Numbered from the stretch's first letter, positions 4,845 through 23,223 are shown. The stretch: DNA of 23,602 bases from Candidatus Iainarchaeum sp. (GCA_038736825.1 JAVYME010000019.1:1-23602); one strand, 5' to 3'. Numbers and translations: made by a program. The notes: generated by a model from the sequence alone, not told the origin.

Positions 4845-7436
4845 ATGAAAAGAATGGATTTATTTGAAAAAATAAAAACAAAAAGCGCGCTGTCCCTGTT
4901 GCTCTTATTACTCATAATAGCAACAGCAAGCGCAACAATTAGCAGCATAACCGTTGTAACCCCAAACGGAGGCGAAAACTGGAGCGGTAAAAAAAACATA
5001 ACTTGGACTGCCACCTGCAGCACTCCTGCAGACGACTATTTTGACATTCAATGGACTTCAGGCAGTGGCTGGAACACTATTGTGAGCGGATTAAAATGTT
5101 CAACATACTGTACAGAAGGCTCTTGCAGTTGGGAATGGAACACCACAAGTGTGAGCGATGGAACAAACTATCAAATTAAAGTAAAAGACATGCAAAACCC
5201 TGGCACAAACGACATTTCAGACAATGTATTCACCATAGACAACACAGGTCCTGGAAAAGTAAGCGATCTCGGGTCAAGCACTCACACAATAGAGGAGTGG
5301 AGCACAGATAATGACATTTCATTCGAGTGGACTGATGCTGAAGACGACGACTTGGATGGCTACTATGTTTTGTGTGACAACACAGCAGACACAGACCCAA
5401 CAGAAGAAGACACCTTTGTTGATGAAGGAGTGCGAATTTATATTTGTGAAGATGTTGAAGACAGTAACCGCATTTACTTTCACATAAGAGCAGTTGATGA
5501 CGCTGGAAACCTGGGCGAAACAGAACACAGTGGACCATACTATGTTGATGCAACACCTCCAGAAATAGAAATAGATGATCTCGCTAACTATTATGGACCC
5601 AACAGTTGGCCTGGAACAATCACTGGAACAGCAAACGACAACCTAAACGGAATTAAACAAGTTCAAGTGGCAATATGCTATGAGGACGAAACCACAATGT
5701 GCTGGAATGGAACAGACAACTGGCAAGAACCAGAAGAAGGAGACGATTATATCTGGAATGAAGCAAATTATGACGATGGAAACTGGAATTATAACATAGA
5801 CGCTGAAGCATTTACCGGACTTGACGGGGTTGAATTTACAGTAAAAGTGAAAGCAACAGATAATGCTGGAAACGAAGCAGAAGGCGAAAGCGCAAGCTTT
5901 ACCTGGGATGAAACCCCACCAGAATCAGCAGTAAACGAATTCGAAGAATACTATGGACCCAACACTTGGCCTGGAACAATAACCGGAACAGCAGATGACA
6001 CACTAAGCGGAACAGACTTCCTAATGCTAACACTATGCTACACAGAAGGTGAAAGCAATTATTGCTGGGACGGAGAAACATGGAGTACAGGCGCACCCGC
6101 ATTCCTATACCCAGAATACGACGAAGAAGAAAAAACATGGAGCGTGAACGTAAACAAAACACTATTCACAGGACTAAACGGAAAACAAATCACCGCAAAC
6201 ATTTGGGCAATAGACAACGTTGAAAACGAAGCAGACGGCGAAAGCGCAAGCTTTACCTGGGATGAAACAGCGCCCACTGTTTTGATTGATCCAACAGAGC
6301 ATAGCTGGACTGGTGAAAGCATTCTGGTTTTGGTTGAGGGCACTGATGAAGAGGGTGGCAGTGGAATGCGCGCAGTTTACTATGCAATAGTTGATAAGGA
6401 AAGCAAGTGCCCAGCGATTGGCGGGGAAGGCTATACCCAGGTTGTTGGCAGTTATGCTGAAATAAGCATTGAGGATGACGGTGAATGGAAGGTTTGTGCT
6501 TACGCTGAAGACATTGCGGGAAATGTTCCTGAAGGCCCGGACAGTGAAGGAATATACCAGTTTGATGCAGGAGCGCCAGTGCTTGAGGAAGAGGGAAGCA
6601 TGTACAGTCATTCTGACAAAACCTTGGCTTTGCTGTTTGATGATGAGTTAACAGAAATTGTTGACGAAACAAAGATTCAGGTATCATATGATCCAGAGGC
6701 AACCGGGTTTGCAATTGATGCTGGTGATGCCTGTTTTATTGGTGGAGATGAAAACAACTTTGTTGTTTGCAGTTTAAGCATAGTGCACAGGGACTTAATA
6801 CAGGGCTGGTATTTGTCTGGCTATAGAACCCTTTACATTTTTGTGGAAGCCAGTGCTGTTGAAGACAAGGCAGGAAACCAGAATGAAAATACAACGACAA
6901 TAATTGCTGGCGAATACTGGACTCCGCAATTGCAGGGAGAAGTGGTTTTAAAACAGGGCTGGAATTTCATTTCAGTGCCTTTACAGTTAGCCAACGATAA
7001 CACTGAAGAAGTGCTTGAGCTCGAGGAAGGGGATGCAGTGTACTATTATTATAATGGTTCGTGGAGGCAACCTGAAACCCTAGAGCCAATGAAAGGATAC
7101 CTTGTTTACAAGGAAAGCACAGGCAAAAGGGAAATAACTTATGACTATGCGTGCGGAATACAAGAAGTGCCTCCAAGCGTGACAGTTGTTGGAAACAAGT
7201 GGAACATGATTGGTCCTCCAAAAGGCGGTGGCGAGAGCGGAGAAATCAGCTTAAGTGACTTTTTGAATTCAAGCCTTTACAATTATGTTTCAAACAGGAT
7301 TTTCACTTACAACAACACGCTTGGCTCTTATGTGCTGGTTAGTGACACTGTAAACACTGGTGTTGGCTATTGGGTTTTCTTTAGAAGCACAGCAGTAATT
7401 CCAGGCACGCCATGCTATACAGAGGAACTAGATTAA
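4845..7436 (+). CDS. secreted multi-domain Ig-like / S-layer-like surface protein (no membrane anchor seen)
   Basis: Signal peptide MKRMDLFEKIKTKSALSLLLLLLIIATASA. The N-terminal Ig-like module is ITVVTPNGGENWSGKKNITWTA...YQIKVKD. Five modules end in D-x-[AV]-[GE]-N (DDAGN, DNAGN, DNVEN, DIAGN, DKAGN), as in SbsA/Big-type Ig domains. The C-terminal beta domain begins LKQGWNFISVP. Confidence 0.85.
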   Translation: MKRMDLFEKIKTKSALSLLLLLLIIATASATISSITVVTPNGGENWSGKKNITWTATCSTPADDYFDIQWTSGSGWNTIVSGLKCSTYCTEGSCSWEWNTTSVSDGTNYQIKVKDMQNPGTNDISDNVFTIDNTGPGKVSDLGSSTHTIEEWSTDNDISFEWTDAEDDDLDGYYVLCDNTADTDPTEEDTFVDEGVRIYICEDVEDSNRIYFHIRAVDDAGNLGETEHSGPYYVDATPPEIEIDDLANYYGPNSWPGTITGTANDNLNGIKQVQVAICYEDETTMCWNGTDNWQEPEEGDDYIWNEANYDDGNWNYNIDAEAFTGLDGVEFTVKVKATDNAGNEAEGESASFTWDETPPESAVNEFEEYYGPNTWPGTITGTADDTLSGTDFLMLTLCYTEGESNYCWDGETWSTGAPAFLYPEYDEEEKTWSVNVNKTLFTGLNGKQITANIWAIDNVENEADGESASFTWDETAPTVLIDPTEHSWTGESILVLVEGTDEEGGSGMRAVYYAIVDKESKCPAIGGEGYTQVVGSYAEISIEDDGEWKVCAYAEDIAGNVPEGPDSEGIYQFDAGAPVLEEEGSMYSHSDKTLALLFDDELTEIVDETKIQVSYDPEATGFAIDAGDACFIGGDENNFVVCSLSIVHRDLIQGWYLSGYRTLYIFVEASAVEDKAGNQNENTTTIIAGEYWTPQLQGEVVLKQGWNFISVPLQLANDNTEEVLELEEGDAVYYYYNGSWRQPETLEPMKGYLVYKESTGKREITYDYACGIQEVPPSVTVVGNKWNMIGPPKGGGESGEISLSDFLNSSLYNYVSNRIFTYNNTLGSYVLVSDTVNTGVGYWVFFRSTAVIPGTPCYTEELD
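5556..6269 (+). repeat. tandem duplication of a ~120-aa module inside the surface protein gene
   Basis: Copy 1 is 5556-5915 (120 aa) and copy 2 is 5916-6269 (118 aa). Both run PPE...YYGPN[ST]WPGTITGTA[ND]D...CY...CW...FTGL.G...D N...NEA[ED]GESASFTWDET. A 44-nt block (5871-5914 vs 6225-6268) has one mismatch, while the rest has diverged. Confidence 0.85.
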
Positions 7437-7494: not shown

Positions 7495-7549
7495 AAAAAG
7501 TCGGCGGTTAGGATAGCTTTATTTGGTTTTGGTTGTTTTTAGTGATATT

Positions 7550-8863
7550 ATGATTGAAAGGCAGTTAATTGTTTTTTTTTCAATTTTTCTTTTTTTTAGC
7601 ATGGTTTTTGCCCAAGATGTTGGTGAAATACCGCTTATTCCGCACTCGTTTTATGGCGAAATAAAAATAAGCGATCAAAACGCGCCCCCTGGCACAAAAA
7701 TCTATGCGTTTATGAATGGTTTTCTCAAGGGTTCAATTGAAACCACGGAAAGCGGTTTTTATGGAAGGTTTCCCAAGCTTGCAGTGGAAGGCACTTCCCA
7801 AGACAAAAACAAGCCAATAGTGTTCTGCATTGGTTTGTTGAAAGCACAGCAGACAGCATACTGGCAGCCTGCAAAGGTTGAGCGCTTGAACCTTTCAAGC
7901 TCTGTTGAATCCTGCCCGTATGCTCTTGAACCAACGCTCACGCCAAGCCCTTCTCCCACAACAACCAGCACTATAGCACCCACTCCAACAAGAACGCCGG
8001 AAACAAGCACTGGAAGCAGTGGCAGTGGTTCTGGTGGACAGGCAAGCCCCACAATTCAACCCGCAAAAACGCCCGCAATCACTGAAAAAATATTGTTTGA
8101 GGAAACAATTGATTGCCTGCCAAGAGCTGACCTTGAAGGGTTTCTTGCATTTGTCAACAAAGAGCAAAGAAAGAAAAGCGCGCTTTCCCTTGAAAAAGTG
8201 GTAAAAATTGAAAGAAAAACTGTTTTGAAGGAAATGGTTCAAGAGGCAAAAAAATGGTTTAGGGTTGAAATACTGCTTTCAATAAAAAACAATTCTGGAA
8301 AAAAAATTGAAAACCTTTTCTTGATAGAGGAAATCCCGAAAGAGATCGCTGAAACCTCGGACAAAATAAAAAGCACAAAAAACTTTTCCGTGCTCATCAA
8401 AGACCCGGTTGTTGAATTTTTCCTTGGAAGCATTGAAAAGGATGCAAGCGCTTTCACACAATACTATGCCGACATTGAAGAGCAAACGGATTCCGGGGAT
8501 TTAAAGAGCGCGCTTCTTTTTTTGAATTCGCCTGTGGCATATGAAGTGAAGGAAAGCAGGGAATGCAATGACAATAATCCCTGCACAATAGACGAATACA
8601 ATGAGGCAAACGCTTCATGCCAGCACACAATGCTTCCGGATGGCACGCAATGCGCACAAGGCAAAGAATGCAAAAGCGGCAATTGCACAACAATAAAAGA
8701 AACACCAGCTGGCACCGAAAAACCGCCAGAGACAACAAGCCAGAGAGAAAAAAACAATGGCTTTCAAGACTATTTTTGGCTAATTATCGTGTTTTTGGGA
8801 GTGCTTTTATTGGCAGGGATATTTATATTAATTAGAAAGTACAATATACTAAAAGCAAAATAG
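7550..8863 (+). CDS. type I membrane-anchored surface protein with PT linker and 6-Cys module
   Basis: ATG 7550 gives signal peptide MIERQLIVFFSIFLFFSMVFA. The N-terminal beta domain is FYGEIKISDQNAPPGTKIYA... A PT/SG linker spans 7928-8083. A CARDB/DUF11-like module reads LLSIKNNSGKKIENLFLIEEIPKE. A Cys-rich module (8564-8686) reads CNDNNPCTIDEY...CQHTMLPDGTQCAQGKECKSGNC. The TM helix is 8774-8833, with short tail RKYNILKAK. Confidence 0.8.
   Translation: MIERQLIVFFSIFLFFSMVFAQDVGEIPLIPHSFYGEIKISDQNAPPGTKIYAFMNGFLKGSIETTESGFYGRFPKLAVEGTSQDKNKPIVFCIGLLKAQQTAYWQPAKVERLNLSSSVESCPYALEPTLTPSPSPTTTSTIAPTPTRTPETSTGSSGSGSGGQASPTIQPAKTPAITEKILFEETIDCLPRADLEGFLAFVNKEQRKKSALSLEKVVKIERKTVLKEMVQEAKKWFRVEILLSIKNNSGKKIENLFLIEEIPKEIAETSDKIKSTKNFSVLIKDPVVEFFLGSIEKDASAFTQYYADIEEQTDSGDLKSALLFLNSPVAYEVKESRECNDNNPCTIDEYNEANASCQHTMLPDGTQCAQGKECKSGNCTTIKETPAGTEKPPETTSQREKNNGFQDYFWLIIVFLGVLLLAGIFILIRKYNILKAK
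7928..8083 (+). repeat. Pro/Thr/Ser/Gly low-complexity linker coding region
   Basis: Encodes EPTLTPSPSPTTTSTIAPTPTRTPETSTGSSGSGSGGQASPTIQPAKTPAIT. Confidence 0.75.
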
Positions 8864-8869
8864 GGGACA

Positions 8870-10666
8870 ATGGAATTGCAAAAAGGTTTTTTTATGCGCT
8901 CAAAAATTTTATTATTGTTTTTTTTGCTTTCCATGCTTTTCAATGCATACGCTGCAACTTGGTTTAGCGGAAACATTAAGGTTAACAGCCAAAACGCGCC
9001 CATTGGAACCACTCTTGAAGGAATAATTGAAGGCATTGTGGACGGAAGCACCACAATTGAAACCGCTGGCACATACACGTTAATGGTGACAAACGACACT
9101 TGGGCAAACTACATTACATTCAAAATGAAAACCCCGCAAATGCAAACCCCTGTTGAAAAAACAATTCTCTTCGATCCCGAGATTGACCTTCCGGAAGGCT
9201 TTGGCACAGAAGACGAACCATACATTTTAGATTTAGAGTTTGAAGCCGAACTGCCAACACCAACACCCACGCCAACACCCACGCCAACCCCGACACCCAC
9301 TAGCACGCCAACAACCCCAACCGGGCCAACTGGACCCAGCGGGCCAAGTGGTGGCCCCAGTGGTGGCGGAACCGGAGGCGGCGGCGCTACTCCAACTCCT
9401 ACAACGCCCACGCCAACCCCTTCCTTGAAAAAAGAAACAGTTTTGGATGAAACCCAAAAATATCTGCCAAGCCCTGAAGAAATTGAAGAAACCCTGGTTT
9501 TGGCTGGAATAACTGATCCTAAAGAAATTGAAAAAATCATAGAGCAAATGGATCATATTTTGATTGTAAAAACCATTAAAGTTGAAAAAACCACTAATCC
9601 GGTTACCGGAGAAGAATCCTTTCAAAGCATTATAACCATTTCAATCAAGAACACTGGCAGGACTGCTTTTGAAAACATCACTTTCTATGAACTGGTTCCA
9701 AAATCAATTGTAAGGGATGCAAGCCTGATTTCTTCAAGCCAGCCATTCAATATAGAGGAAAAAGGCGATTTTTGGATTATAAAATGGCATTATGATTCGC
9801 TTATGCCTGGAAAAACAACAAAGTTTTCTTACACTCTACCCTTAAACGCTGGAACCACAATATTGAACAACAGCAAGTCCCTTTTCTCTGGAACAGAAAA
9901 AGAGGCTCCGCCAAGCCAGTTATTTGGAAAAATAATTGTAAGGGTTTTATTCAATGGAAGGCCACAGCAAGGCATAGTGGTTTGGCTGGAAAAAGACGGC
10001 ACTAGAGAAGCACAAAACGCTACAAGCGCCCAAGGAATAGTGGAATTCATTTCATTGCCTCCAGGCAACTATTTTGTTTCAACAAATGAAACCTCACAGT
10101 TTTATGCTGCAAGCATGAGAGTGGTTCTAAGTGAAGGGGAAACAAGAGAGGTTGCATTAAGCCTTTCAGCAAAAACCATTCCAACACAAAAACCGCAAGA
10201 GGCTGTAATTCCAGGGTTTTGGCTGCTAGTGCTATTTGCAATCATAGCATTAATCATAATATTGTTCTTTTTCAGGGAAAAACTCTTTGGAGAAGAAAAG
10301 AAAGAAGTAGTTGCCACGCCAGCGAAAAAAACAGAGCCAAAAAGACCGTTCAAAAAGGAAAAGAAAGAACCACCAATTGAAAAGCCGGTTCCAGCCCAAG
10401 TTGTTGAAGAGAAAAAACCAGAGCCAGTGAAAAAAGAAGAACCAAAAAAGCCAGAGCCAACCGCAGAGCCCGTGAAAAAGGAAGAACCTAAAAGGCCGTT
10501 CCAAAAAATCAAAGAAGAAAAAATGGCTGCTGCCTTAAAACCAGAGCCTAAAGAGGAAAAACCGCCAGAAGAGCCAAGCACATACAAGTGTGATGAGTGC
10601 GGTGAAGAATTCCATACAAGGATTGCATTGCGTGCCCATAAAAGGCGCCACCAGCACACAAAATAA
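8870..10666 (+). CDS. type I surface protein with cytoplasmic Lys/Glu/Pro-rich tail and C-terminal C2H2 zinc finger
   Basis: ATG 8870 (alternative ATG 8894). Signal peptide ...MRSKILLLFFLLSMLFNAYA. The N-terminal domain is paralogous to the upstream gene. A PT/G linker spans 9251-9424. ISIKNTGRTAFENITFYELVPK is a CARDB-like module. GKIIVRVLFNGRPQQGIVVWLEKDG...PPGNYFVS resembles a carboxypeptidase-regulatory fold. The TM helix is 10208-10273, followed by a KEP-rich tail and YKCDECGEEFHTRIALRAHKRRH (10583-10651). Confidence 0.8.
   Translation: MELQKGFFMRSKILLLFFLLSMLFNAYAATWFSGNIKVNSQNAPIGTTLEGIIEGIVDGSTTIETAGTYTLMVTNDTWANYITFKMKTPQMQTPVEKTILFDPEIDLPEGFGTEDEPYILDLEFEAELPTPTPTPTPTPTPTPTSTPTTPTGPTGPSGPSGGPSGGGTGGGGATPTPTTPTPTPSLKKETVLDETQKYLPSPEEIEETLVLAGITDPKEIEKIIEQMDHILIVKTIKVEKTTNPVTGEESFQSIITISIKNTGRTAFENITFYELVPKSIVRDASLISSSQPFNIEEKGDFWIIKWHYDSLMPGKTTKFSYTLPLNAGTTILNNSKSLFSGTEKEAPPSQLFGKIIVRVLFNGRPQQGIVVWLEKDGTREAQNATSAQGIVEFISLPPGNYFVSTNETSQFYAASMRVVLSEGETREVALSLSAKTIPTQKPQEAVIPGFWLLVLFAIIALIIILFFFREKLFGEEKKEVVATPAKKTEPKRPFKKEKKEPPIEKPVPAQVVEEKKPEPVKKEEPKKPEPTAEPVKKEEPKRPFQKIKEEKMAAALKPEPKEEKPPEEPSTYKCDECGEEFHTRIALRAHKRRHQHTK
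9251..9424 (+). repeat. imperfect CCNACN hexanucleotide (PT) plus Gly-rich linker coding repeat
   Basis: Encodes LPTPTPTPTPTPTPTSTPTTPTGPTGPSGPSGGPSGGGTGGGGATPTPTTPTPTPS. It generates shadow ORFs on both strands. Confidence 0.8.
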
Positions 10667-10768
10667 TGCTTTGAACACTTTTTGCACTGTTTTAGCCTGA
10701 AAATGGAAAAATTAATAAAGGAGTATTGGATAATCTATACTGTTTCCTGATTGGATTTGGTGTTAGAA

Positions 10769-12268
10769 ATGGTTGGAGAGGAAAAGGAAAAACAGCCTTA
10801 TGGTTACGAGGTTTATGAAGAATATGAATGGAAGGCTTTTGCAAAAAAAATAGCAAAATATTTGCTCATACTTGTAGTTATTTTGGCAATAGGCTGGCTT
10901 ATTTATGACTATTTTGTGGGCTCTTATGTGCCTGTCACAATAATAGTGCAAGACCTTGAAAAAAAGCCCATTACAGACAACACCATTTATGTGACAAACG
11001 AAAAAACTGGCGCTTCACATTTTGAAAAAAGCGGGCAATCCACTTACAATTTCACGCTCAAGCGCGGGCTTTTCGGGGCAACAGAAAACTATGTTGTAAG
11101 GGTTGAAGCCGACAAATTCAAAGCACAACAGGCAATACTGCCAGTTGGAACAGAAAAGTTATCGCAAAATATTTCGCTTGAAAGGGACATTGATGTCAAA
11201 ATCATTGACGTGGAAATACCAAAACAGCTCTTTGGAGGCCAAACCTTTACAATGACTGCCACTATTGAAAACCGCGGTTCAAGTGGTGAAAAAATAGATT
11301 TGGGTTTCAGCAAGGACTTTGAGGAATGGAGTTGCGCTCCAGTGGACAAAGAAATCTTCATTCAGGCGAAAACCAAGTCTGAGTTTGACATTCAGTGCAC
11401 TGTGCCTCCCACTGCAACCAAATCGATTTCCTCCAAGGGCGTGGAAAAAGAAGCCGCTGTTTACGTCAGGCTCACAAAACAGCAGTGGACTGGCAAATTC
11501 CAGCTTTATCCAATGCCTGCGTTTTCGCCGGCTGCAAGACTGGATTTTTCAAGCATGGATCCAATAAAAAGCCCTAAAAAAAAGATGGATTTCACTTTAA
11601 AAAATTCCAGCAGGTTTCCGATTTACGACATTCAATTGAAAATAGAAATAATTTCTGCTGAAAAAAACAAGCCTGAAGACATCAAAAAATGGGTTTATTT
11701 TGTGAATGCGCCTGAAGAGGACAAGACAAAAATCACAGTGCCGGCTATACGCGAGTCTGAAAGCTTTATTGTGCCTGTAGAGGTTTCGCTTCCAGTGAGC
11801 GCTCTCCCTGAAAAAATCACTGGGCGCATAGTGATAGAGGCACCATTCCTTACAGCTCCAATGAATTCCACGCTTTCCATTGAAATAACAAAGGCAGCCC
11901 AGGCAACCATAAGACTGGGCTATTACCCGCAATCGGTTTCAATAGAATTCAAGGACGGCAGTCCAGAAAAACGGCAAATAAGCATTGACGTGGAAAATTC
12001 AGGCGATTTGGACATATCAAACCTCAACATAAGAGTGAAAAACACTGATGTTTGCACAGAAAACTGGCTTTACTTCACTGACACTGGATTTATAACAAAA
12101 CTGGCTGCAAAGGGAAAAAAACAGGTTTATTTGACTGCCACTGCTCCGAAAACAGCAAAGGTTGACGATTATGCGCCCTGCCTTTTAATGGCATCCTATC
12201 CTCACCCCATAACCGGTTCAATGATGGAAGAAGACTTGGGATTAATACAGGTTAAAAGGTCCAGGTGA
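10769..12268 (+). CDS. N-terminally anchored (type II) envelope protein with CARDB/NEW3-like beta-sandwich repeats
   Basis: ATG 10769 is preceded by GGTG (10759-10762). A charged cytoplasmic N-terminus leads into TM helix YLLILVVILAIGWLIYDYFV. Beta-rich modules follow, with recurring patterns (TMTATIENRGSSGEKIDLGF; FTLKNSSRFPIYDIQLKIEI; ISIDVENSGDLDISNLNIRVKN) typical of CARDB/NEW3/COG1470-type S-layer-like proteins. Confidence 0.8.
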   Translation: MVGEEKEKQPYGYEVYEEYEWKAFAKKIAKYLLILVVILAIGWLIYDYFVGSYVPVTIIVQDLEKKPITDNTIYVTNEKTGASHFEKSGQSTYNFTLKRGLFGATENYVVRVEADKFKAQQAILPVGTEKLSQNISLERDIDVKIIDVEIPKQLFGGQTFTMTATIENRGSSGEKIDLGFSKDFEEWSCAPVDKEIFIQAKTKSEFDIQCTVPPTATKSISSKGVEKEAAVYVRLTKQQWTGKFQLYPMPAFSPAARLDFSSMDPIKSPKKKMDFTLKNSSRFPIYDIQLKIEIISAEKNKPEDIKKWVYFVNAPEEDKTKITVPAIRESESFIVPVEVSLPVSALPEKITGRIVIEAPFLTAPMNSTLSIEITKAAQATIRLGYYPQSVSIEFKDGSPEKRQISIDVENSGDLDISNLNIRVKNTDVCTENWLYFTDTGFITKLAAKGKKQVYLTATAPKTAKVDDYAPCLLMASYPHPITGSMMEEDLGLIQVKRSR

Positions 12269-13034: not shown

Positions 13035-13052
13035 AAAAAAAGCGCTTTTTTT
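13035..13052. terminator. bidirectional terminator-like palindrome A7-GCGC-T7
   Basis: AAAAAAAGCGCTTTTTTT is a perfect palindrome that fills the 22-nt gap between the convergent PAC2 and ribH genes. It gives a T7 run on either strand. Confidence 0.5.
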
Positions 13053-13459
13053 CAAATTTTTAATTTTGCCATTTTCACTGCTGCTTCAACAGCGTGCTCT
13101 GAATAAGGTTTCAGTCTTTGCATTGCCTGTTTTTTTGAAACCCTTGGCCCTATTATTCCAGAGCAAACCGGTTTTTCAAATTCAATGCTTAAGTCGGCGA
13201 TTTTCCTGAAAGCGTTTCCTGCAACCATTACATCGTGTTCTGTTCCTCCCCTTAACACAATTCCCAAAACAACTATTGCATCGGCTTGTTTTTTTTCAAG
13301 GATTTTTTTTACGGCAAGCGGTGCTTCAAAAGCGCCTGGAACCCTGGCAACAAGGGAAACTTGCACTCCAAGGCTTTCAGCCTTTTTTTTTGCAAAAAAA
13401 AGCATTTTTTCAGCCATTTCTTTGTGGAAGTCGGCTAAAACTATTGCAATGGAAACCAT
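13052..13459 (-). CDS. ribH: 6,7-dimethyl-8-ribityllumazine synthase
   Basis: The 135-aa protein contains IAIVLADFH...VPGAFEAPLAVKKILEK...DAIVVLGIVLRGGTEHD...AFRKIADLSIEF.KPV..GI.GP...AVEAAVKMAKL. From memory it is collinear with the Methanocaldococcus jannaschii lumazine synthase. Confidence 0.9.
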   Translation of the reverse strand: MVSIAIVLADFHKEMAEKMLFFAKKKAESLGVQVSLVARVPGAFEAPLAVKKILEKKQADAIVVLGIVLRGGTEHDVMVAGNAFRKIADLSIEFEKPVCSGIIGPRVSKKQAMQRLKPYSEHAVEAAVKMAKLKI

Positions 13460-13472
13460 TTATGTCAACCCT

Positions 13473-13952
13473 TTATTTTACTGGCAAGAGTTTGGCGTTT
13501 TTTGAGCCCTGTCTTTGCCCTGTTCCGGCTCTTTCAACAAGGCTTTGAGGGTTAAAGAGCAAGTCTAGCGCGTTCAAGGAATGCTTTTCAACGCGGTCCT
13601 TTAAGATTTTTGCAAGCTCGCTGTCTTTTTTTGACTCGCAAGAGTGCACGAACACTTTTAAAATGTGCTTGCCGCTCAAAAGCTCTGCAATTATTAAGCC
13701 GATTCCTGCCTCCATTGCGCACCTTTCGTCAACTTCTGCCTCTCCAACAAAACCAAGCGCTATTATTATATCACAGTTTTTTTCTTCAAAGAGCTTTTTG
13801 CTGGCAATTGCCAAATCCTTTATTCCTGGAACAGTGTAACGCTCTATTTCAACCTTATAGCCTTTTGCCTTGCATTCCCTGTTAATTGTTTCAATTGCAA
13901 TTTTTCCCATGTTTGCTCGCGCAAACATTGTGTCCGCAATTCCAATCCTCAT
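13473..13952 (-). CDS. ribC: archaeal-type riboflavin synthase
   Basis: From ATG 13952 the protein reads MRIGIADTMFARANMGKIAIE...YTVPGIKDLAIASKKLFEE..CDIIIALG...HILKVFVH...GTGQRQG. From memory this matches the pentameric archaeal riboflavin synthase family (M. jannaschii MJ1184). The start overlaps the ribK stop by 1 nt (TGATG). The ORF-track start at 13982 adds 10 residues outside the family. Confidence 0.9.
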   Translation of the reverse strand: MRIGIADTMFARANMGKIAIETINRECKAKGYKVEIERYTVPGIKDLAIASKKLFEEKNCDIIIALGFVGEAEVDERCAMEAGIGLIIAELLSGKHILKVFVHSCESKKDSELAKILKDRVEKHSLNALDLLFNPQSLVERAGTGQRQGSKNAKLLPVK

Positions 13953-14365
13953 CAAACCACCTTTTTTTCTGTTTTTTTCCAAGCTGAAATTTCCACTGCA
14001 TCGCCGTCCTTGAGTTCAAATTTTTCCCTTAATTTGACTGGCGCAATTATTTCAATTATGTTGCAGGGATGGCTTGTTTTTGCAGGCCTGATTATTGCTG
14101 CATTCAAGCCCTTAAATGAAATCCTGTAAACCTTCAAGCAGCCAAAAACCTTTCCGTCCTTTTCAAAGGAATCCACTTTTTCTTCTTTTAAGGCTTGCAA
14201 GAATTCTTGCAATAATTGTTCTTCAACTTCAATGTTTAGTGTTCCACTGAACGGCTTGAAGCCAAGCAAGCGTTCAAGCCTTTCAAGGTATTCTGGCATG
14301 GAAAGGAACAAGCAGCCTTTTTCCAAACCGCTTCTCACAATTCCCTTGAGAGCAATGTCTGCCAT
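13952..14365 (-). CDS. ribK: CTP-dependent riboflavin kinase (archaeal RibK)
   Basis: From ATG 14365 the protein reads MADIALKGIVRSGLEKGCLFLSMPEYLERLERLLGFKPFSGTLNIEV...IIEIIAPVKLREKFELKDGDAVEI. This matches the MJ0056-type riboflavin kinase (GxVxSGxGxG..F, PYxGTLN, EIIAP.kLR). The upstream 22 codons of the track ORF look spurious. Confidence 0.88.
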   Translation of the reverse strand: MADIALKGIVRSGLEKGCLFLSMPEYLERLERLLGFKPFSGTLNIEVEEQLLQEFLQALKEEKVDSFEKDGKVFGCLKVYRISFKGLNAAIIRPAKTSHPCNIIEIIAPVKLREKFELKDGDAVEISAWKKTEKKVV

Positions 14366-15774: not shown

Positions 15775-18700
15775 TCATTTTTGCACTAATTTTTTCCTTT
15801 TGTACACCAAAAAGTGGATTGCCAGAGTGATTCCAAAAACAGAAAACACTATTGCTGGAAGCTCTTGAGGCCAAGAGGGCAAATTGAACAAGCCGCCATC
15901 GCTTGCACCAGTGGAAATGTTCATTATATTGTTTCCAGGCGTGGTTACAACTTGTCCGTTTGCTCCCACTTGTGTTAGGGCTCCGTTTTTGAAGGCTTCA
16001 AGCAATGGCAGCAACTGGGCGTTTTCTGCATTCCAAGTGTTTTTTTCTGTGTCATACCAGAAGGAACCGTTTCTGCCTTGCGCCATGGTTAATGGTTCCG
16101 GAGGGTAATTGTTGTAGGTTACCATTGGAATTCCGTTTTTTGCATCAATTCCAAGGTTGTGAGATTTTCCGTCCTCGGTTTTTATTTTTATTCCGTCTGG
16201 TGTTACAGTCATGCTTTCAATTGGAGCATCATATATTTCGCCTGTTTGCTTGTCTATTACCCTGAAATAGTCTTTGCATGTGCCGTCTGGTTCAAGCTTT
16301 GAATAGAATATGAATCTCCTTGTAGGGGTTTCCAGTATTGTGAAGGGTCCAACGTTTTGCAGGGCTTCATTGAAGGCATTAACCTTAAAAGCGGTTGTGC
16401 TGCTCTTGTCGGATGGCAAAACTTCAAGGTTGACTGCTGGCTCTGGGCAGTCTGTGAGCGGGTTTCTTGAAGTGGCTGGCTTTAGTTTTACGCCTGCAAC
16501 ATCATCTGAAGACAACTGCCCGAGCTCGTGCCGTTTCAGCCATACAAGCAATTCATGCGTGTCAGGCTTGTAGAGTATTACTCCGTTCTTGAATTGAATG
16601 GATTTAAAAAGCCCGACAAACATGTTTTGGTCAGGACGCCACAAATAAGTGTTCCTGTCTGCATGAATCCTGGCTTTTGCCTCACTGCCCTCCATTATCA
16701 GCCTGGGAGTGCCTTCTGCAACAATCCTTTTATCTTCAGGCCAAGCCATGATTGATGGATGGGAGTCTGTTACAATTGTTTCCACTTTTCCAAATATTGG
16801 GGTTAAATTGAAGGATGTGGCGCTGTCGCTTTTTGCATCCAATCCTGACTGGAATTTTATTCCTTGCAATAAGCATTCTATAACCGAGGGGATTTTGACT
16901 GTGAGCTCGCCATCAGTGTCCATTTCAAACAATAGTTCTGCAGACTTTGGCAGTCCTATGAGTGTGAACCGTTTTCCGAATTCTTCTGCTGGAATCCTGG
17001 TGTTGGTGGAGGCACTCCTTGTTGCAAGCTCGTTTTCAGTTATTGTTTGAAGGAGTTGCCCGTTTTCGTCAACCACATAAACTTTTCCAGTGTTGAAGTC
17101 AACTATTACAAACCTGTTGCCGTCCTGCGAGGCAATCTTTTTTATGCCTTCGGTTTTGTATTCCAAGGGCGAGGTTTCGCCCTTGTACCAGAAGGAAAAC
17201 AATTGTTCGCCTGAAAGCTTGCCTGAAGAAAACCCAGGGATTTCCACTGTTGCTTGCACTATGTCTGACTGGCTTGCGCCTTCAAAAAAGTCTTTTACTT
17301 GGCGGTCCAAGGCTTCTGCTGCCTTGGAAGTGTAAGAGTTTGTGTCAGACTTGAACATTCCAATCAGTTGTCCTGAAAACTTTTCAGCCATATCCATTGC
17401 TTTTTCTGTTGAAAGCGCTTCACTGCTTTCCGTGCCCTTTTTTTCCTCTTTGGATGGAGCAAATATGTGCGTGTAATAGCCTTCATCGACGTCAACACAG
17501 TCTTGGAGTTGTGATGCAACCACCACTTGTTGGAAGACTGAACCGAAAATTCCAGCCCAAAACGCTGTCATGTAGAGAGCGCTCTCCCCGAAAGCCAGAA
17601 CTCCGCCTATAGCGCTTGGTTTCAAAACACTGTCTTTCGAGAAAGCGCCTGTTGCCCTTCCCAAGCCAAACAAGGCTTCTTGGGCTTTGTCTTGACAGGT
17701 TTGCTTTTTCGCTATTGCTGTTTTCAGGTTTATTTCCCCGCTTGTAGAAGCACCGCTTTCCTTTCCTTGAAGGTTGGTGTGATGGGCAAAGGTTATAAGG
17801 GTGTTGCCTTTCTTTTTGGCGGCTTCAGAGACTGCATCCTCTATCATGTAGGACTTAAAGCGGTCGCTAGCGTAAAAAAATGCTGAAAAGGACTGGAAAT
17901 TGTTTGAAGTGTCAAGGCTTACACCACAACCACTGCACTCGTTTTGGGTTGTGCCATAAAACGCTATGTTTTCCACTTCGTTCCGTATATTGCCGCCTGT
18001 AAAGTTTTCATACAATTTTTTTGCTGGAGCATAGTTTTCTATGAGTTGTCCTGCAATGAACTCCCAGGGCATTGCGCTTACAACCCTGCGGAACATGTCG
18101 CCCTGGTCTGAGCCTTCGTGAGAGAAAAAGTCTATGAAGGCATCATTGTAAATCGGGTCTGAACCCAAAGGCCACCTGATTTCACGCCAGGAATCTGGCA
18201 GCATGTAGGCGGAAATGCCTTCTTGTCCAAAGCCTCTTTTTGCAAACCAGTAAGTGTTCAACAAGGCAGTCCACTTGAATGGACCGGTTTTTGAGCCAAA
18301 ATAATTCTTTAAAAGCTCGTCTTGGTTCATTAGTGCTCTGTCCAAAAGGCTGGTGTAATTGCGTTTCATGAAGCCTTTTGCCTGCAAGCCGTAAACCAGT
18401 TTGTCTGCATTATCCGGGCCATACCAGGTTAGCATTGATTCAAGCCTGCGATTGTTCACAAGCCTTTGAGCGAATTCTTCCGGGCTTAACTCTTTGGCTT
18501 TAGTGATTGCTCCAGCATACATTGGTTTTTGTCCTGTCATCACTTTTGAAACATATGGCAGGGTTGCATCCTTTACCGGCATTACTTCGCCTGGATCGGT
18601 TTTCACAAAAATGTCAGTGAACTGGGAAAAATGCGTTTTTAAGTCGTCTGCGGTGACTTTTGCGATTTCTGTTGCACTTGGATCAAAAGCGTAAAGGTTG

Positions 18701-20412
18701 AGGTTTTTGCCAGCGTTTTCAAAAGAGAACTGGGTTGGCCACATTCCGCCCCAGTGCCCGTCTGCTTCAAACTTTTTCATTACATTGTAAATGTCTATTG
18801 AGTCTGAGGCAAGCCATCTTGTTGCGTCAGAGCCTTGCGGTTTTACTCCATAATAGAAAAGCCTTGCGGAACCATCTCTTGAAAACCATTCCGGAATGTC
18901 TAAGTGAATCATGTCTTCAGAGGAAGTCATTATTTTGCTTATTTTTTGCCCGAAATCAATTCTTGCAGCAACCTCTGAAGGGTGCCCCAAGCCATAAGCT
19001 TTGAGTGCCTGCATGTAGGGTTCTTTTGCATCATTGTACACTGCGCGCTGGATTTTTTGCCATTTCCTTACATCTTCAGCGAACTGGTACATTTCTTTTT
19101 GCACGCGTCCTTCGCTTATTTGGTCAAACCAGCCTCCCGTGTTCATCCATTCCTTTTCAAGCTTGTTTCTGAACTCCCTGCTTTTCAGCAATAACATGCC
19201 GTCCTGCCATCCCTGGGTTTCCATTAATTCAAAGCGAAGCCTTCCAACGTCCGGAATGCCTTCAGCGCGAGCCCACATTCTTCTTCCAAGGCGTTCATAG
19301 TAGGCTGTGCCTGGACCCATAAACCTTCTCCTGATTGCATCCATTATTTTTTCGTCAAACACTTTTTTGATTTTCGGGAAAAAGCCTCTCCTGCCAATGT
19401 TCATGAAGAGTTTTTTTGCCCTGCTTATCAGGGTTGGCGCGGCATTGCTTATCACCATTTCTGTGGAAAACCAGTTGTTGTAGTATTTGTCAAACAAAGA
19501 GTAAACATTGATTATGCAATCTGAAGTGTTGCATGTGGTTTGAGAGTAAGCATTGAAAGTGCTTGCCAGAATGGAGTTTGGAATCATTTCCTTTACAAGC
19601 CTTGACATTGTCTGCACTCTTGTTTCGTTGAGGTCGCTTGAGGCAGCCAGTTCTTTTAATTCTTGCGAGGAGTTTTCAGGCAAGCCTAATGCTTTTCTCA
19701 TGCCCTCATAGTCTTCATCCGTCCAGTCAGACTGCTCTTTTTCCGTCCAATTATAGTCTTTGCCTGTAAGGCCGCCGGCAATTGTTTCACCTGCACTCAC
19801 TGCAGCGCCTTTTATTTTTTGGCCTATTTCTCCAAAGAATTCCTTTATGGGCTTGAAATCGCTTACAAAACCGGTTCCAGAGTTCCTCAAACTCAATTGT
19901 TTTCCTTCCATTGGACAGGGAATGTTTTGGTCCTTTAAGTCAGTACACCTGCCAACCCTGAGAGTGTCTGTCAAAACAAGACCGTAAGAATATGGCCCGC
20001 TGATGTGGTCATTGAAAATGTGTTGGGCTTCATTGGCGTCAAATTTTTGGTCAGCCATTTCCACTTTTCTGGCTGTGTTTTTGTCGTCTCCCAGCGGAAT
20101 AACTACTGTTGGGTTTGCCAGTTTGTCTCTTGCAGTGTTTTCTGGACTGCCACTACTGTATTCTGAGCCCAAAAAGCCGTCCCTTAAAAGGTCCAAAAAC
20201 CTTTGCGAGTCTTCATCGCTCATGGACGGGTTTGCGCAAGTGAATTGCCCGCCTCTTTCCTCCATTGCCTGTAAAGGGGTTTTTTTTGTTTCTCCAAGGC
20301 TTTCACTGGCTTCAGCTGCGTAAACCAGGTGAGAGTTCAATAAAAGGGCTACAAGGATTGCTGCAAGGAATTGTTTTTTTTCCAGCCAGCAATTCAAGCA
20401 AAACACCGTCAT
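15775..20412 (-). CDS. giant (1545 aa) secreted, C-terminally membrane-anchored protein of unknown function
   Basis: ATG start. Sec-type signal peptide MTVFCLNCWLEKKQFLAAILVALLLNSHLVYA/AE. The C-terminal TM helix PAIVFSVFGITLAIHFLVY is followed by KRKKLVQK. An internal hydrophobic stretch sits at about aa 933-969. I recognise no catalytic or repeat motifs. The frame is long and uninterrupted, and only short shadow ORFs lie opposite. Confidence 0.85.
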   Translation of the reverse strand: MTVFCLNCWLEKKQFLAAILVALLLNSHLVYAAEASESLGETKKTPLQAMEERGGQFTCANPSMSDEDSQRFLDLLRDGFLGSEYSSGSPENTARDKLANPTVVIPLGDDKNTARKVEMADQKFDANEAQHIFNDHISGPYSYGLVLTDTLRVGRCTDLKDQNIPCPMEGKQLSLRNSGTGFVSDFKPIKEFFGEIGQKIKGAAVSAGETIAGGLTGKDYNWTEKEQSDWTDEDYEGMRKALGLPENSSQELKELAASSDLNETRVQTMSRLVKEMIPNSILASTFNAYSQTTCNTSDCIINVYSLFDKYYNNWFSTEMVISNAAPTLISRAKKLFMNIGRRGFFPKIKKVFDEKIMDAIRRRFMGPGTAYYERLGRRMWARAEGIPDVGRLRFELMETQGWQDGMLLLKSREFRNKLEKEWMNTGGWFDQISEGRVQKEMYQFAEDVRKWQKIQRAVYNDAKEPYMQALKAYGLGHPSEVAARIDFGQKISKIMTSSEDMIHLDIPEWFSRDGSARLFYYGVKPQGSDATRWLASDSIDIYNVMKKFEADGHWGGMWPTQFSFENAGKNLNLYAFDPSATEIAKVTADDLKTHFSQFTDIFVKTDPGEVMPVKDATLPYVSKVMTGQKPMYAGAITKAKELSPEEFAQRLVNNRRLESMLTWYGPDNADKLVYGLQAKGFMKRNYTSLLDRALMNQDELLKNYFGSKTGPFKWTALLNTYWFAKRGFGQEGISAYMLPDSWREIRWPLGSDPIYNDAFIDFFSHEGSDQGDMFRRVVSAMPWEFIAGQLIENYAPAKKLYENFTGGNIRNEVENIAFYGTTQNECSGCGVSLDTSNNFQSFSAFFYASDRFKSYMIEDAVSEAAKKKGNTLITFAHHTNLQGKESGASTSGEINLKTAIAKKQTCQDKAQEALFGLGRATGAFSKDSVLKPSAIGGVLAFGESALYMTAFWAGIFGSVFQQVVVASQLQDCVDVDEGYYTHIFAPSKEEKKGTESSEALSTEKAMDMAEKFSGQLIGMFKSDTNSYTSKAAEALDRQVKDFFEGASQSDIVQATVEIPGFSSGKLSGEQLFSFWYKGETSPLEYKTEGIKKIASQDGNRFVIVDFNTGKVYVVDENGQLLQTITENELATRSASTNTRIPAEEFGKRFTLIGLPKSAELLFEMDTDGELTVKIPSVIECLLQGIKFQSGLDAKSDSATSFNLTPIFGKVETIVTDSHPSIMAWPEDKRIVAEGTPRLIMEGSEAKARIHADRNTYLWRPDQNMFVGLFKSIQFKNGVILYKPDTHELLVWLKRHELGQLSSDDVAGVKLKPATSRNPLTDCPEPAVNLEVLPSDKSSTTAFKVNAFNEALQNVGPFTILETPTRRFIFYSKLEPDGTCKDYFRVIDKQTGEIYDAPIESMTVTPDGIKIKTEDGKSHNLGIDAKNGIPMVTYNNYPPEPLTMAQGRNGSFWYDTEKNTWNAENAQLLPLLEAFKNGALTQVGANGQVVTTPGNNIMNISTGASDGGLFNLPSWPQELPAIVFSVFGITLAIHFLVYKRKKLVQK

Positions 20413-20427
20413 AGTTTTTTTTCAACC

Positions 20428-20970
20428 TCACGAGTAAAGGAAATAAAGCATTCCCTGGAAAACCCAGCCGAAAAGGAAAAGCAGCAAGGCGGATGCAAGC
20501 AAAGTGCAAGCGTAAACTGAAACAAAAAGGCAAAGGTATTTGTTGAATTTCTTTTTTTCAAGCCATTCTTTTGGAAAAGAGCCAAGCAAGACAAAAAAAA
20601 GGCAGACTCCTGTCAAAAAAATGCTGCCTGCCAAAACCCTGAAAATGGAAGTCAAAGCCAAAGCCATCCAGTCAGAGAAATCAGGCTGCAATTCTTCCGG
20701 TTTTTCGCCCAGGCTTTCAGCACCAAAACCGTACAATAAGGGATAAAAATAGACAGTAAAAACAAGCAAGAGAGAGAAAAAAAAGCAGACAATTGCTGCT
20801 GCAAAAAACCATGAAATCTTGAATTTGGCGGTGAGCTTTTTATGCAATGCCCTTCCAGCCAGTGCAGTGAAAAAAAGCGGGATTGACAATACCAGGCTGC
20901 CTCGCAACAAATCCACCACCGTAAAGGCAACATCAAGCACTGAAGCCAAAACCACCGCCATAACAACCAA
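20428..20970 (-). CDS. small polytopic (about 5 TM) membrane protein, unknown function
   Basis: TTG at 20970 or ATG at 20961. About five hydrophobic helices are separated by short charged loops (HKKLTAKFK; GEKPEELQPDFSD; PKEWLEKKKFNK). The stop lies 15 nt upstream of the giant ORF start on the same strand. Confidence 0.7.
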   Translation of the reverse strand: MVVMAVVLASVLDVAFTVVDLLRGSLVLSIPLFFTALAGRALHKKLTAKFKISWFFAAAIVCFFFSLLLVFTVYFYPLLYGFGAESLGEKPEELQPDFSDWMALALTSIFRVLAGSIFLTGVCLFFVLLGSFPKEWLEKKKFNKYLCLFVSVYACTLLASALLLFLFGWVFQGMLYFLYS

Positions 20971-21045
20971 CTAACGCTAAAAATATACCTGTAACCCATA
21001 TATATAACTTAATGTAACATATTAAGTGTTTTGGATTGGTGCCAT

Positions 21046-21861
21046 ATGTACACTCCAGAAAATGTGCCGCGGAGAATGATGCGCTTTTACAGGGACGACG
21101 GAACCCGCCTTGTAAAACACCTCTCAAAACAGATTGAAAAAGCCAGCGGCATAAAAGAGGTTGAAAAACAAAAAATAATAATAAGCCTTAAGCGAAGGCT
21201 TGAAGAACTCGAAGAAAACGAAAAAAAAGACTTGGCTGTGCACTTGTTCGAGCAAGCAAGCAGTGGAAAAGACGAAACAAAAGAAGTGGTGTTCAAAGAG
21301 GTAATGAAATACCAGGGCAGACAACAGGAACTGTCAAGCAAGGAAGCCGACGAAATAGCGGACAGCATTTACTCTCAACTCAAAGAAAGAGAGGAATCAC
21401 ACAAAATCCTCTCCAGGCTTGAGGAAAAAAAGAAAAAAGAACAAGAAAAAAGCGAAAAAGAAAAAGAAAAAAAACTGCGCGAAGCAGAAAAAAAGCTGCC
21501 GCGCTCTGAAAGGCGTGAAATAAGGGAAGCTGGGCCGTTTGCAATCCCAGAACCTGAAAAAACAAGAAAAATTGACACTGCCTCGGAAGTGGACAAAATA
21601 AAAAAAGAATTATCCCAGGGGCTTGACAAAAAAGAAGAAAGCCCGGAAGAAGAAGAGGATGATTTCAGTGACATCAAAAAAGAACTGGGAATGGATGATG
21701 AAAAGGAAGAGGAAGACTCCACCTTTGAAGAACTGGAAAAACTCAGCGAAGAAAAAGAAGAAAGCCTTTCAGTTGAAAGCGATGAAGATTCAGAAGAAGA
21801 CTTCAGCATGGAGGGCTTTAAAACCGAATTCGAAGAAGAAAAGAAAAAGAAAAAAAAATAA
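21046..21861 (+). CDS. hyper-charged Glu/Lys-rich protein with acidic tail, unknown function
   Basis: ATG 21046 (the track's TTG 21031 is less likely). The first roughly 110 aa are non-repetitive (MYTPENVPRRMMRFYRDDGTRLVKHLSKQIEK...). An EK-rich segment follows, then an acidic tail (EEEEDDFSD...ESDEDSEEDFSMEGF...) ending in KKKKKK. The antisense Ser-rich ORF is a shadow. Confidence 0.65.
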   Translation: MYTPENVPRRMMRFYRDDGTRLVKHLSKQIEKASGIKEVEKQKIIISLKRRLEELEENEKKDLAVHLFEQASSGKDETKEVVFKEVMKYQGRQQELSSKEADEIADSIYSQLKEREESHKILSRLEEKKKKEQEKSEKEKEKKLREAEKKLPRSERREIREAGPFAIPEPEKTRKIDTASEVDKIKKELSQGLDKKEESPEEEEDDFSDIKKELGMDDEKEEEDSTFEELEKLSEEKEESLSVESDEDSEEDFSMEGFKTEFEEEKKKKKK

Positions 21862-21865
21862 AACT

Positions 21866-22675: not shown

Positions 22676-23223
22676 ACAACCACCACTAAAAGCATTGGCC
22701 TTACAGCAAAACCGCTCTTTATGTTTGCAGAATTGTCCTGGAATGCGACAGGGAACATTTTAACTATTGCCTGGCTGCCTGGCTTCATGTGCTCAAAATT
22801 TCCAGGACAGACAACATGTTCAAGTTCTCCGGTTTCAGGGTTTGTTGTAATATAAACCCCTTGATTGCTGTCAACAAAATCCCTTAACTCTATCATTTCA
22901 AAGGGCGCGCCCTCTTGTCTTAACTCTATCAAGCCTGCCTTGAAATTCACGCCTGGCACGCTCACCTTTTCACACAATTCCTTGAATTCCTGCAAGTCGT
23001 TTATGTACTTGTCGCCCCGCATTTGATCGCTTATTTTAAGGATTTTTATTGCCCTGTCAAAACGAGTGTTGCCCTTGTCAAAAACCGAAAAGGTTGCAGT
23101 AAAGGCAGTGAAAAAAACAACCAGTGAAAAAATTATTGGAATCAGGCTTGGAAGGTCGTCGCCTATTGGTCCAATAAAACCGCGGTTTTTGTTTTTTTTT
23201 CTCCAAAAAACCTTCATTTTCAT
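22666..23223 (-). CDS. N-terminally anchored, possibly pilin-like protein
   Basis: ATG 23223 overlaps the upstream stop by 1 nt (TGATG). The N-terminus is MKMKVFWRKKNKNRG/FIGPIGDDLPSLIPIIFSLVVFFTAFTATF. It has a single hydrophobic helix and then a soluble domain ending in the beta-like RPMLLVVVVWF. The track start at 23238 is also possible. Confidence 0.6.
   Translation of the reverse strand: MKMKVFWRKKNKNRGFIGPIGDDLPSLIPIIFSLVVFFTAFTATFSVFDKGNTRFDRAIKILKISDQMRGDKYINDLQEFKELCEKVSVPGVNFKAGLIELRQEGAPFEMIELRDFVDSNQGVYITTNPETGELEHVVCPGNFEHMKPGSQAIVKMFPVAFQDNSANIKSGFAVRPMLLVVVVWF

Follow-up and report, generated by a model that had tools for sequence, protein, structure and literature searches.

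Classical C2H2 zinc fingers are rare in archaea, and those characterised so far are small, soluble and mostly viral proteins, such as the members of the AFV1p06 family, of which AFV1p06 itself binds DNA (PMC3541406). A different kind of precedent is offered by CdpC of Haloferax volcanii, in which a membrane anchor and a long disordered linker carry a zinc ribbon that binds FtsZ1 (bioRxiv 10.64898/2026.07.16.738847). Here we describe an open reading frame (ORF) of 598 amino acids (aa) at positions 8870-10666 (+ strand, stop codon included in the coordinates) of a 23,602-nucleotide (nt) stretch of DNA from Candidatus Iainarchaeum sp. (GCA_038736825.1, JAVYME010000019.1:1-23602), hereafter called the window. 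As judged from the ORF call, domain searches, hydropathy and AlphaFold2 (AF2) modelling, its product is a surface protein, membrane-anchored in type I orientation, that has a C2H2 finger on the cytoplasmic side: known parts in an undescribed arrangement. An earlier interpretation of the same DNA (the sequence-only reading) knew of no characterised archaeal surface protein with this architecture, and our literature searches on archaea, DPANN and prokaryotes likewise turned up no description of a C2H2 finger on the cytoplasmic side of a type I surface protein.

The finger occupies aa 572-594 (YKCDECGEEFHTRIALRAHKRRH; 10583-10651, + strand), with C574, C577, H590 and H594 as the predicted ligands, and is followed by a short basic C-terminal extension, QHTK (10652-10663, + strand), which reads QHTK, QHTR or QHAR in three sequences. 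The terminal C2H2 finger announced by the sequence-only reading was borne out at every position of the consensus [YF]-x-C-x2-C-x3-F-x5-L-x2-H-x3-H, whose chance expectation was 3.7e-5 in the six-frame translation of the window and which appeared in none of 300 shuffles; the two cysteines involved are the only ones in the 598 aa. Against a gathering score of 25, Pfam profile PF13912 (zf-C2H2_6) matched aa 572-595 with 26.0 bits when run on the whole protein and with 31.4 bits when run on the last 47 aa. For PF00096 (gathering score 25.2) the last 47 aa gave 26.1 bits, and the orthologous fingers described below score 20-24.5 bits, slightly under the gathering threshold. An AF2 model of the full-length protein, run on a 5-sequence alignment, displayed a beta-beta-alpha fold at aa 572-597 with a predicted local distance difference test score (pLDDT) of 74-86, which rose to 90-93 when the tail was modelled separately. 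All the top Foldseek matches of this segment in the PDB were C2H2 fingers, with root-mean-square deviations of 0.3-1.3 A over 20-26 columns and E-values of 0.2-1, which miss significance owing to the shortness of the domain. Sequence matches in the PDB pointed to a designed consensus finger and to the Aart fingers, the identity to the designed consensus finger 1MEY being 48% over 21 aligned residues. By motif, profile score and predicted fold the finger belongs to the classical C2H2 family, and it would bind Zn2+ through its 2 Cys and 2 His.

A protein of this kind could have arisen artefactually in assembly or annotation, by a frameshift or chimera that joined a small independent finger gene to a membrane protein. 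The composition is continuous over the region, however, and the same in-frame fusion recurs in independent assemblies from different studies, so that an artefact is effectively refuted. A first homology search recovered Diapherotrites (Iainarchaeota) proteins with the same core, among them P0003 (P and L labels are ours), which ends with TFKCDECGKEFHTRIALKAHKRHH. Scanning one genome per GTDB species for the finger then pointed to two Candidatus Iainarchaeum contigs. The first, L002 (JAZDDY010000106), encodes a complete 555-aa protein (P0014, annotated by NCBI as hypothetical protein) with signal peptide, ectodomain, transmembrane (TM) helix, tail and finger (YKCDECGEEFHTRIALHAHKRRHQHTR); the second, L003 (JAPLVS010000039), opens within the tail and closes with YKCEECGEEFHTRIALHAHKRRHQHAR and a stop codon, and comprises tail and finger only. 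P0154, located on a 79.9-kb contig, is the full-length form of P0003, this complete ORF being present in JGI assemblies Ga0366838 and Ga0370355. A distant positional orthologue, P0078, was found in one JGI and one Logan assembly and bears a divergent finger in the middle of its tail (YVCEVCGREFKNKFALRGHMRHH; 24 bits with Pfam zf-C2H2). The Cys and His ligands are invariant in all five finger sequences (window, L002, L003, P0003/P0154 and P0078), which also share the spacing C-x2-4-C-x12-H-x3-5-H and the aromatic/Phe/Leu core, and the tail motif, helix and finger considered below align unbroken across sequences. Several orthologues, therefore, retain the finger, with L002 and P0003/P0154 combining ectodomain, TM helix and finger in one complete ORF, and the ways in which the sequence-only reading had exposed itself to refutation (a frameshift or chimera, a finger absent from all orthologues, ligands that are not conserved) did not materialise. 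Scanning of metagenome contigs for the finger returned only a eukaryotic multi-finger contig (L004) and did not recover the JGI contigs carrying P0003/P0154; a scan of viral contigs gave no relative and no sign of viral origin, and the exact window protein was absent from the public gene index.

Comparison of the four close copies revealed that the finger is the most constrained and best conserved part of the protein. Its identity ranged from 83 to 96%, versus 36-56% in the ectodomain core, and synonymous codon differences exceeded non-synonymous ones in all comparisons (6/1, 8/2 and 8/5), indicating purifying selection. Invariance was not limited to the residues that determine the fold, since the solvent-exposed residues of the helix were invariant too.

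To which side of the membrane the finger belongs was deduced from hydropathy. A Kyte-Doolittle scan of the 598-aa protein revealed only two hydrophobic segments, aa ~6-32 and aa 447-468. The former forms part of a signal peptide (aa 1-29; 8870-8956, + strand), recognised by hydropathy and by an N-terminus that aligns with P0001 and P0002, and made up of an n-region with the basic residues K5, R10 and K12, a hydrophobic core and a cleavage-type site (AYA|AT). A Shine-Dalgarno-like sequence (GGGGA) stands immediately 5' of the ATG at 8870; Met9 (8894) may be the true start instead, because P0002 starts at that position, with no consequence for the other results. The latter segment is the sole TM helix (IPGFWLLVLFAIIALIIILFFF; 10208-10273, + strand), whose Kyte-Doolittle mean over 19 residues reaches 3.3; internal Pro, Gly and Asn are absent, and AF2 places a helix at aa 450-472. 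It lies between ectodomain and tail, and every other structural element named in the sequence-only reading was likewise found where that reading had placed it. Given the two hydrophobic segments and the basic N-terminus, the C-terminal tail would lie in the cytoplasm both with and without cleavage of the signal peptide. A PGF tripeptide directly before the TM helix (10211-10219, aa 448-450) has the look of an archaeosortase PGF-CTERM signal. This candidate was discarded: 130 aa follow the helix, and the motif is neither C-terminal nor conserved (orthologues have PW, IPW or other residues). None of the NCBIfam CTERM models matched, the best being PEF-CTERM with an E-value of 0.55 in the L002 protein.

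Between the TM helix and the finger extends a Lys/Glu/Pro tail predicted to be disordered from its composition and its pLDDT of 33-43 (aa 469-570; 10274-10579, + strand). The whole 130-residue C-terminal region contains 29 Lys, 27 Glu and 20 Pro, with a net charge of +8. Alignments confirmed the internal repeats that had been noticed in it, EPKRPFKK at aa 489-496 (10334-10357, + strand) and EPKRPFQK at aa 539-546 (10484-10507, + strand), and a repeat search added a 45-nt tandem duplication (10408-10497, + strand; two copies, 80% identical), at which orthologues are gapped and which makes the window tail longer than theirs. The second motif is kept in every finger-bearing orthologue, and also in the finger-less relatives P0022 and P0156, and is followed by a short helix (aa 546-555) predicted by AF2 in both the full-length and the tail-only models. 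In the finger clade this motif, E-x-[KR]-R-P-F-x-K, is located about 30 residues upstream of the finger and precedes an Ala-rich helix; the tail of P0078 harbours an apparently equivalent arrangement, EKFKK...HAAKK. A free 47-aa finger peptide, which the sequence-only reading had envisaged as a second product starting at the in-frame ATG at 10523, did not hold up: this ATG has no Shine-Dalgarno-like sequence before it, and the residue it encodes, Met552, is replaced by others in the L002 protein, the L003 fragment and P0003.

The window protein belongs to an unnamed family of Iainarchaeota surface proteins that share a signal peptide, a variable head, a Pro/Thr- and Gly-rich linker, a module with a helical insert and a DUF11-like fold, a CarboxypepD_reg-like module, a TM helix and a charged tail. 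The members are the window protein, P0001-4, P0010-14, P0022, P0025/P0156, P0038, P0078 and P0089. Giant repeat adhesins that match the CarboxypepD_reg-like module dominated a profile search made with the core of the ectodomain; among the 150 matches listed, 11 (two of them already known) covered the profile in a single near-full-length stretch and provided nine further members, the single full-length family matches having E-values from 1e-125 to 4e-40. The census is incomplete and the member counts represent a lower bound. The finger is absent from P0001, P0002, P0004, P0010-12, P0022, P0025/P0156, P0038 and P0089; as an accessory it occurs in a small subclade and in a single distant member, not throughout the family. 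In a neighbour-joining tree of the core, the finger-bearing window protein, P0014 and P0154 were interleaved with the finger-less P0156 and P0022, and P0078 stood elsewhere, a pattern implying either repeated loss of the finger or its movement by recombination. Sequence comparison made evident that the gene is a mosaic produced by domain shuffling or recombination among surface-protein paralogues: the window core is 28% identical to that of P0002 (encoded in L005) and 56% identical to that of the L002 protein, its head is 75% identical to that of P0002, and the L002 protein has a different, Cys-rich head.

Across the family, the tails (n=14) ranged from 54 to 142 aa, were Lys/Glu/Pro-rich with net charges from 0 to +20, and in about half of the cases contained an [A/K/R]R[PS]F or KFRRP motif. 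Extreme polybasic clusters were found in the finger-less P0001, P0002, P0004, P0011, P0012, P0038 and P0089 (e.g. RRKRRRGKKKKR and KKRKKRKRRESK; KMKKKRKKPRKR is a further example from finger-less tails). The density of Lys and Arg per 12 residues was 7-11 in finger-less tails versus 5-7 in finger-bearing ones, a roughly complementary distribution of polybasic clusters and finger that is suggestive, with ranges overlapping at 7. Several finger-less relatives terminate in a conserved ...SKFRRP and other family members contain RRPF or VRPF, elements that look like undescribed linear motifs. In P0155, a JGI protein from the 90% cluster of P0022, the tail diverges into unrelated sequence after ...ARPFNKSEPV. 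This looks like a frameshift in the low-complexity tail and would make such tails prone to assembly or sequencing frameshifts.

What the finger binds can be approached through its helix. In the Zif268 scheme, DNA-reading residues at helix positions -1, +2, +3 and +6 are polar or charged, a basic residue of the hairpin contacts the phosphate, and two or more fingers usually stand in tandem. Numbered after Zif268, these positions are invariantly T/I/A/A in the window finger and its close orthologues (four sequences), P0078 having N/F/A/G instead; the hairpin sequence DECGEE is acidic, with Glu in place of the usual phosphate-contact Lys (CGKxF) in 3/5 sequences; and the protein has one finger only. 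The features of a sequence-specific DNA-reading finger are, in sum, lacking, and a role as a DNA-sequence-reading transcription factor is unlikely. These same properties led us to favour docking over DNA reading, and the frozen, partly hydrophobic helix face beside a conserved linear motif is a better fit to a protein-docking surface. Our preferred interpretation, to which we would assign a probability of about 0.4, is that the finger, permanently anchored to the membrane, serves as a docking module for a conserved partner in the cytoplasm, most likely a protein. Outside the cell, a swappable N-terminal head would be carried on a Pro/Thr-Gly linker and two Ig-like beta-sandwich stalk modules; inside, a flexible Lys/Glu/Pro tail of 80-140 aa would bear the [KR]RPF linear motif and the short helix, and in this subclade would close with the single, predicted Zn-binding C2H2 finger, which would dock the putative protein partner and so couple the surface protein physically to the cell interior. 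The variation in tail length, from 83 to 142 aa, and the 45-nt expansion in the window are the behaviour of a tether.

Several observations weigh against docking to a protein. The nature of the partner is putative, the topology is read from hydropathy only, most family members have no finger, and the ATPase and platform genes lost from the window locus (see below), which would be obvious candidate partners, are missing there. C2H2 fingers most often bind nucleic acids, and the C-terminal half of the finger helix, HKRRHQHTK, is strongly basic. In addition, the polybasic clusters of the finger-less tails suggest that the general job of the tail may be polyanion binding. These points converge on the second explanation in our ranking, which we consider tentative, namely that the finger and the surrounding basic residues bind DNA, RNA or ribosomes without reading sequence. 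They would thereby keep nucleoid or RNA attached to the envelope, or keep the surface protein close to where synthesis takes place, a task for which the finger-less relatives would use their polybasic clusters. The fold is primarily a nucleic-acid-binding one, including in AFV1p06 (PMC3541406), and the 14/14 family tails have a net charge of 0 or above, with RRKRRRGKKKKR and KMKKKRKKPRKR among the clusters that roughly complement the finger. Single fingers with basic flanks, such as that of the GAGA factor, can bind DNA, and the polybasic C-tails of YidC/Oxa1 bind ribosomes. This explanation has to contend, however, with the T/I/A/A positions, with the acidic hairpin and its Glu at the phosphate contact, with an N-terminal flank of the window finger that is mixed or acidic (PEPKEEKPPEEPS) and with the overlap of the Lys/Arg densities at 7, and the polybasic clusters might bind anionic lipids instead.

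A membrane-tethered regulator of transcription, or one-component signalling device, was the first possibility raised by the sequence-only reading. The ectodomain would sense contact or a ligand and the finger would regulate genes, either in situ, as in ToxR/CadC, or after regulated intramembrane proteolysis, as in SREBP, ATF6 and RsiW. The elements follow one another in the right order, ectodomain first, TM helix next and then, on the cytoplasmic side, a finger of the kind usual in transcription factors; the recognition helix stays fixed among orthologues, as for a conserved target; and DPANN cells are so small that a tail of about 100 aa could reach the DNA. A lone finger with non-polar recognition positions is nevertheless unable to specify a site, the ectodomain resembles an adhesin stalk with interchangeable heads and not a sensor, and the positional orthologue P0002 does without the finger. 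Release by intramembrane proteolysis calls for a cognate protease and a helix-destabilised TM segment, and neither was seen: the TM helix has no internal helix-breaking residues, and no rhomboid, S2P or other protease domain was found in the window or in loci L005, L006 and L008, an absence from the neighbourhood that is weak evidence. We regard this regulator as improbable, and the released transcription factor takes the last place in our ranking. Somewhat less improbable, though still unlikely, is a broader arrangement in which an adhesin-like ectodomain, engaged in contact with a host or a surface, is wired through a flexible cytoplasmic tether to a finger whose target is the nucleoid, RNA or the machinery of transcription, making the protein a transmembrane coupling device. 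The finger might, finally, be a stable minor appendage, either a folded cap that shields the disordered tail from degradation or a drifting domain with no specific ligand. The patchy distribution of the finger on the tree and the visible shuffling of domains among paralogues (head 75% and core 28% identical to P0002) would suit such an appendage; its standing as the most conserved segment, the excess of synonymous over non-synonymous differences and the invariance of exposed helix residues, not just of those determining the fold, would not, and we give it little credence. Docking to a conserved protein remains first in the ranking, with non-specific nucleic-acid binding second; the observations agree with the two other possibilities raised by the sequence-only reading, a tether for nucleoid or RNA and a protein-protein adaptor.

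The ectodomain begins with a beta-rich N-terminal head (aa 30-127; 8957-9250, + strand), delimited by sequence comparison and modelled by AF2 with low confidence, which is common to the upstream paralogue. A linker that is first Pro/Thr- and then Gly-rich follows (aa 128-185; 9251-9424, + strand; pLDDT <50), within which Tandem Repeats Finder detected CCAACA-type tandem repeats at 9253-9347. The next module (aa 186-345; 9425-9904, + strand) is family-specific and, according to the alignments, kept in all family members; Pfam, AF2 and alignments describe it as a two-helix insert plus a DUF11-like beta-sandwich, with a DUF11 match at aa 236-335 (E 5.5e-4, under the Pfam gathering score). A CarboxypepD_reg/SdrD-B/CnaB-like beta-sandwich (aa 346-435; 9905-10174, + strand) was recognised by Pfam, Foldseek and profile searches, with CarboxypepD_reg and DUF4198 matches at aa 354-432 (E 2e-4 to 6.5e-6) and an SdrD_B match in the same stretch, all under the Pfam gathering scores, and the profile positions of this module (about 150-250) resemble repeats present in thousands of giant adhesins. 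AF2 modelled aa 184-435 as beta-sandwiches with the two-helix insert at a pLDDT of about 88-91, and the Foldseek neighbours of the core were UafA (5e-8), SdrD, BcpA and CnaB2. As modelled, the ectodomain is made of beta-sandwiches like the stalk domains of Gram-positive adhesins and pilins, and the linker, the CARDB/DUF11-like module and the carboxypeptidase-regulatory-like module proposed from the sequence all found support.

The finger gene is the third in a row of four surface-protein genes (4845-7436, 7523-8863, 8870-10666 and 10751-12268) within a window that also contains pentose-phosphate genes, PAC2, two DMRL-synthase genes and a CTP-dependent riboflavin kinase gene. The gene upstream (7523-8863, + strand), whose stop codon lies 6 nt before the ATG at 8870, encodes a tandem paralogue of 446 aa (27% identity over about 300 aa, E 3e-8) with the same head, linker and first module; behind these come a Cys-rich domain, a TM helix and a tail of 9 aa that bears no finger. 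It is 60% identical to the L005 neighbour. Downstream (10751-12268, + strand), Pfam and synteny defined a 505-aa protein with an N-terminal TM helix and a CARDB-like region. The gene order of this surface locus is also found in L005, L006 and L008, where genes for an ATPase (Fer4-T2SSE) and for T2SSF-type or small membrane proteins, and sometimes small ORFs or a Na/Ca exchanger, stand between the family gene and that of the ~500-aa protein, which in turn precedes PAC2 (L005 9881-13093, L006 4310-8670, L008 1821-6190). In L003 the ATPase gene follows the finger gene directly. The window has no ATPase/T2SSF block, only 85 nt separating 10666 from 10751 with the flanking synteny intact. The family, therefore, belongs to a conserved surface and type-IV-pilus-like locus, and the window finger protein persists without an adjacent ATPase. 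The block itself corresponds to a type-IV-pilus or archaellum-like machinery that has, unusually, a ferredoxin domain at the N-terminus.

An ORF of 67-89 aa was observed directly after the finger gene in L001 (2016-2231), L008 (1821-2024) and L002 (6262-6531), with a weak DUF5678 match in L001 and L008. DUF5678 was considered and dismissed as a consistent partner, since it follows the gene in L001, L008 and possibly L002 and is missing, like the small ORF, from L003, L006 and the window. Farther from the finger gene, two adjoining genes with the DMRL-synthase fold (13052-13982, - strand), one with a strong and the other with a weak match, lie beside the CTP-dependent riboflavin kinase gene; they probably encode archaeal lumazine synthase and riboflavin synthase, an arrangement also seen in L008. 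A 1545-aa ORF without Pfam match (15775-20412, - strand) has a counterpart in L005, a protein of 1520 aa with 48% identity along about 1500 aa. The gene of that protein shares its strand with the surface-gene cluster, which implies that the copy in the window is inverted. The end of the window (20428-23582) is occupied by five further ORFs of 118-276 aa that have no match in a Pfam scan (20428-20970, 21031-21861, 21866-22675, 22666-23238 and 23223-23582).

DPANN archaea depend on contact with other cells, and next to nothing is understood of the communication between their surface proteins and the inside of the cell. The RPF motif, helix and finger together span about 60 aa and offer a small, strongly conserved and easily expressed handle on the cytoplasmic partner of the family; they also contribute one more observation on where the eukaryote-type finger came from and what range of functions it can serve. 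Should protein docking be all that the finger does, the architecture would be a neat but modest curiosity in a handful of uncultivated genomes; were the finger part of a transmembrane coupling device, the protein would rank as the first membrane-tethered C2H2 regulator or envelope-nucleoid tether of an archaeon, and as a prokaryotic case of a eukaryote-type finger in outside-in signalling.

Comparison with known systems sets each part of the protein apart from its nearest counterpart. The sequence-only reading had likened the tail to the EP/KP spacer of TonB, and the likeness stands as regards composition, both being extended, repeat-containing, Glu/Lys/Pro-rich spacers beside a TM helix. A relationship was rejected, the tail having no TonB_C match and lying C-terminal to the TM helix on the cytoplasmic side, whereas the spacer of TonB is periplasmic and runs into a TonB_C domain. 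The ectodomain shares with MSCRAMM and pilin stalks (SdrD B, CnaB, UafA, BcpA) a tandem of Ig-like/transthyretin-like beta-sandwiches, with Foldseek E-values down to 5e-8. Those proteins, however, are anchored by LPXTG and sortase, whereas the window protein is archaeal and TM-anchored, and identity in the adhesin and pilin matches is 8-16%. ToxR/CadC/TcpP and the ZAS (zf-HC2) proteins likewise cross the membrane once, with one domain outside the cytoplasm and another inside it that binds DNA or protein (and, in ZAS, zinc), but in these the cytoplasmic domain is N-terminal (type II) and consists of a winged helix-turn-helix or an HxxxCxxC motif. A ToxR/CadC-type regulator was ruled out by the opposite polarity and the lack of a Trans_reg_C match in the window protein, and a ZAS transmembrane anti-sigma factor by the lack of a PF13490 match; to our knowledge, archaea have no sigma factors, so none would be expected near the gene.

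As for the finger itself, its consensus, profile score and predicted beta-beta-alpha fold are those of the classical TFIIIA/Krueppel-type C2H2 fingers, from which it differs in being single, with no linker to further fingers, in its non-polar DNA-reading positions and acidic hairpin, and in its place, the cytoplasmic tail of a type I membrane protein from a prokaryote. Compared by description with the AFV1p06 family, it is again an archaeal, single, eukaryote-like C2H2 finger with disordered flanks. In that family, however, the finger is followed by an extension of a loop, a helix and a third strand, which cannot be present in the window protein, where only 4 residues follow, and the window finger has the canonical fourth His and is fused to a membrane protein of 570 aa. 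CdpC differs in its amphipathic-helix anchor, in having no ectodomain and in its C3H and C4 zinc ribbons, and bears no sequence relationship to the window protein; nevertheless, it follows the same logic of an anchor, a disordered linker and, at the C-terminus, a zinc domain, and provides an archaeal precedent for the docking of a cytoplasmic protein by such a design.

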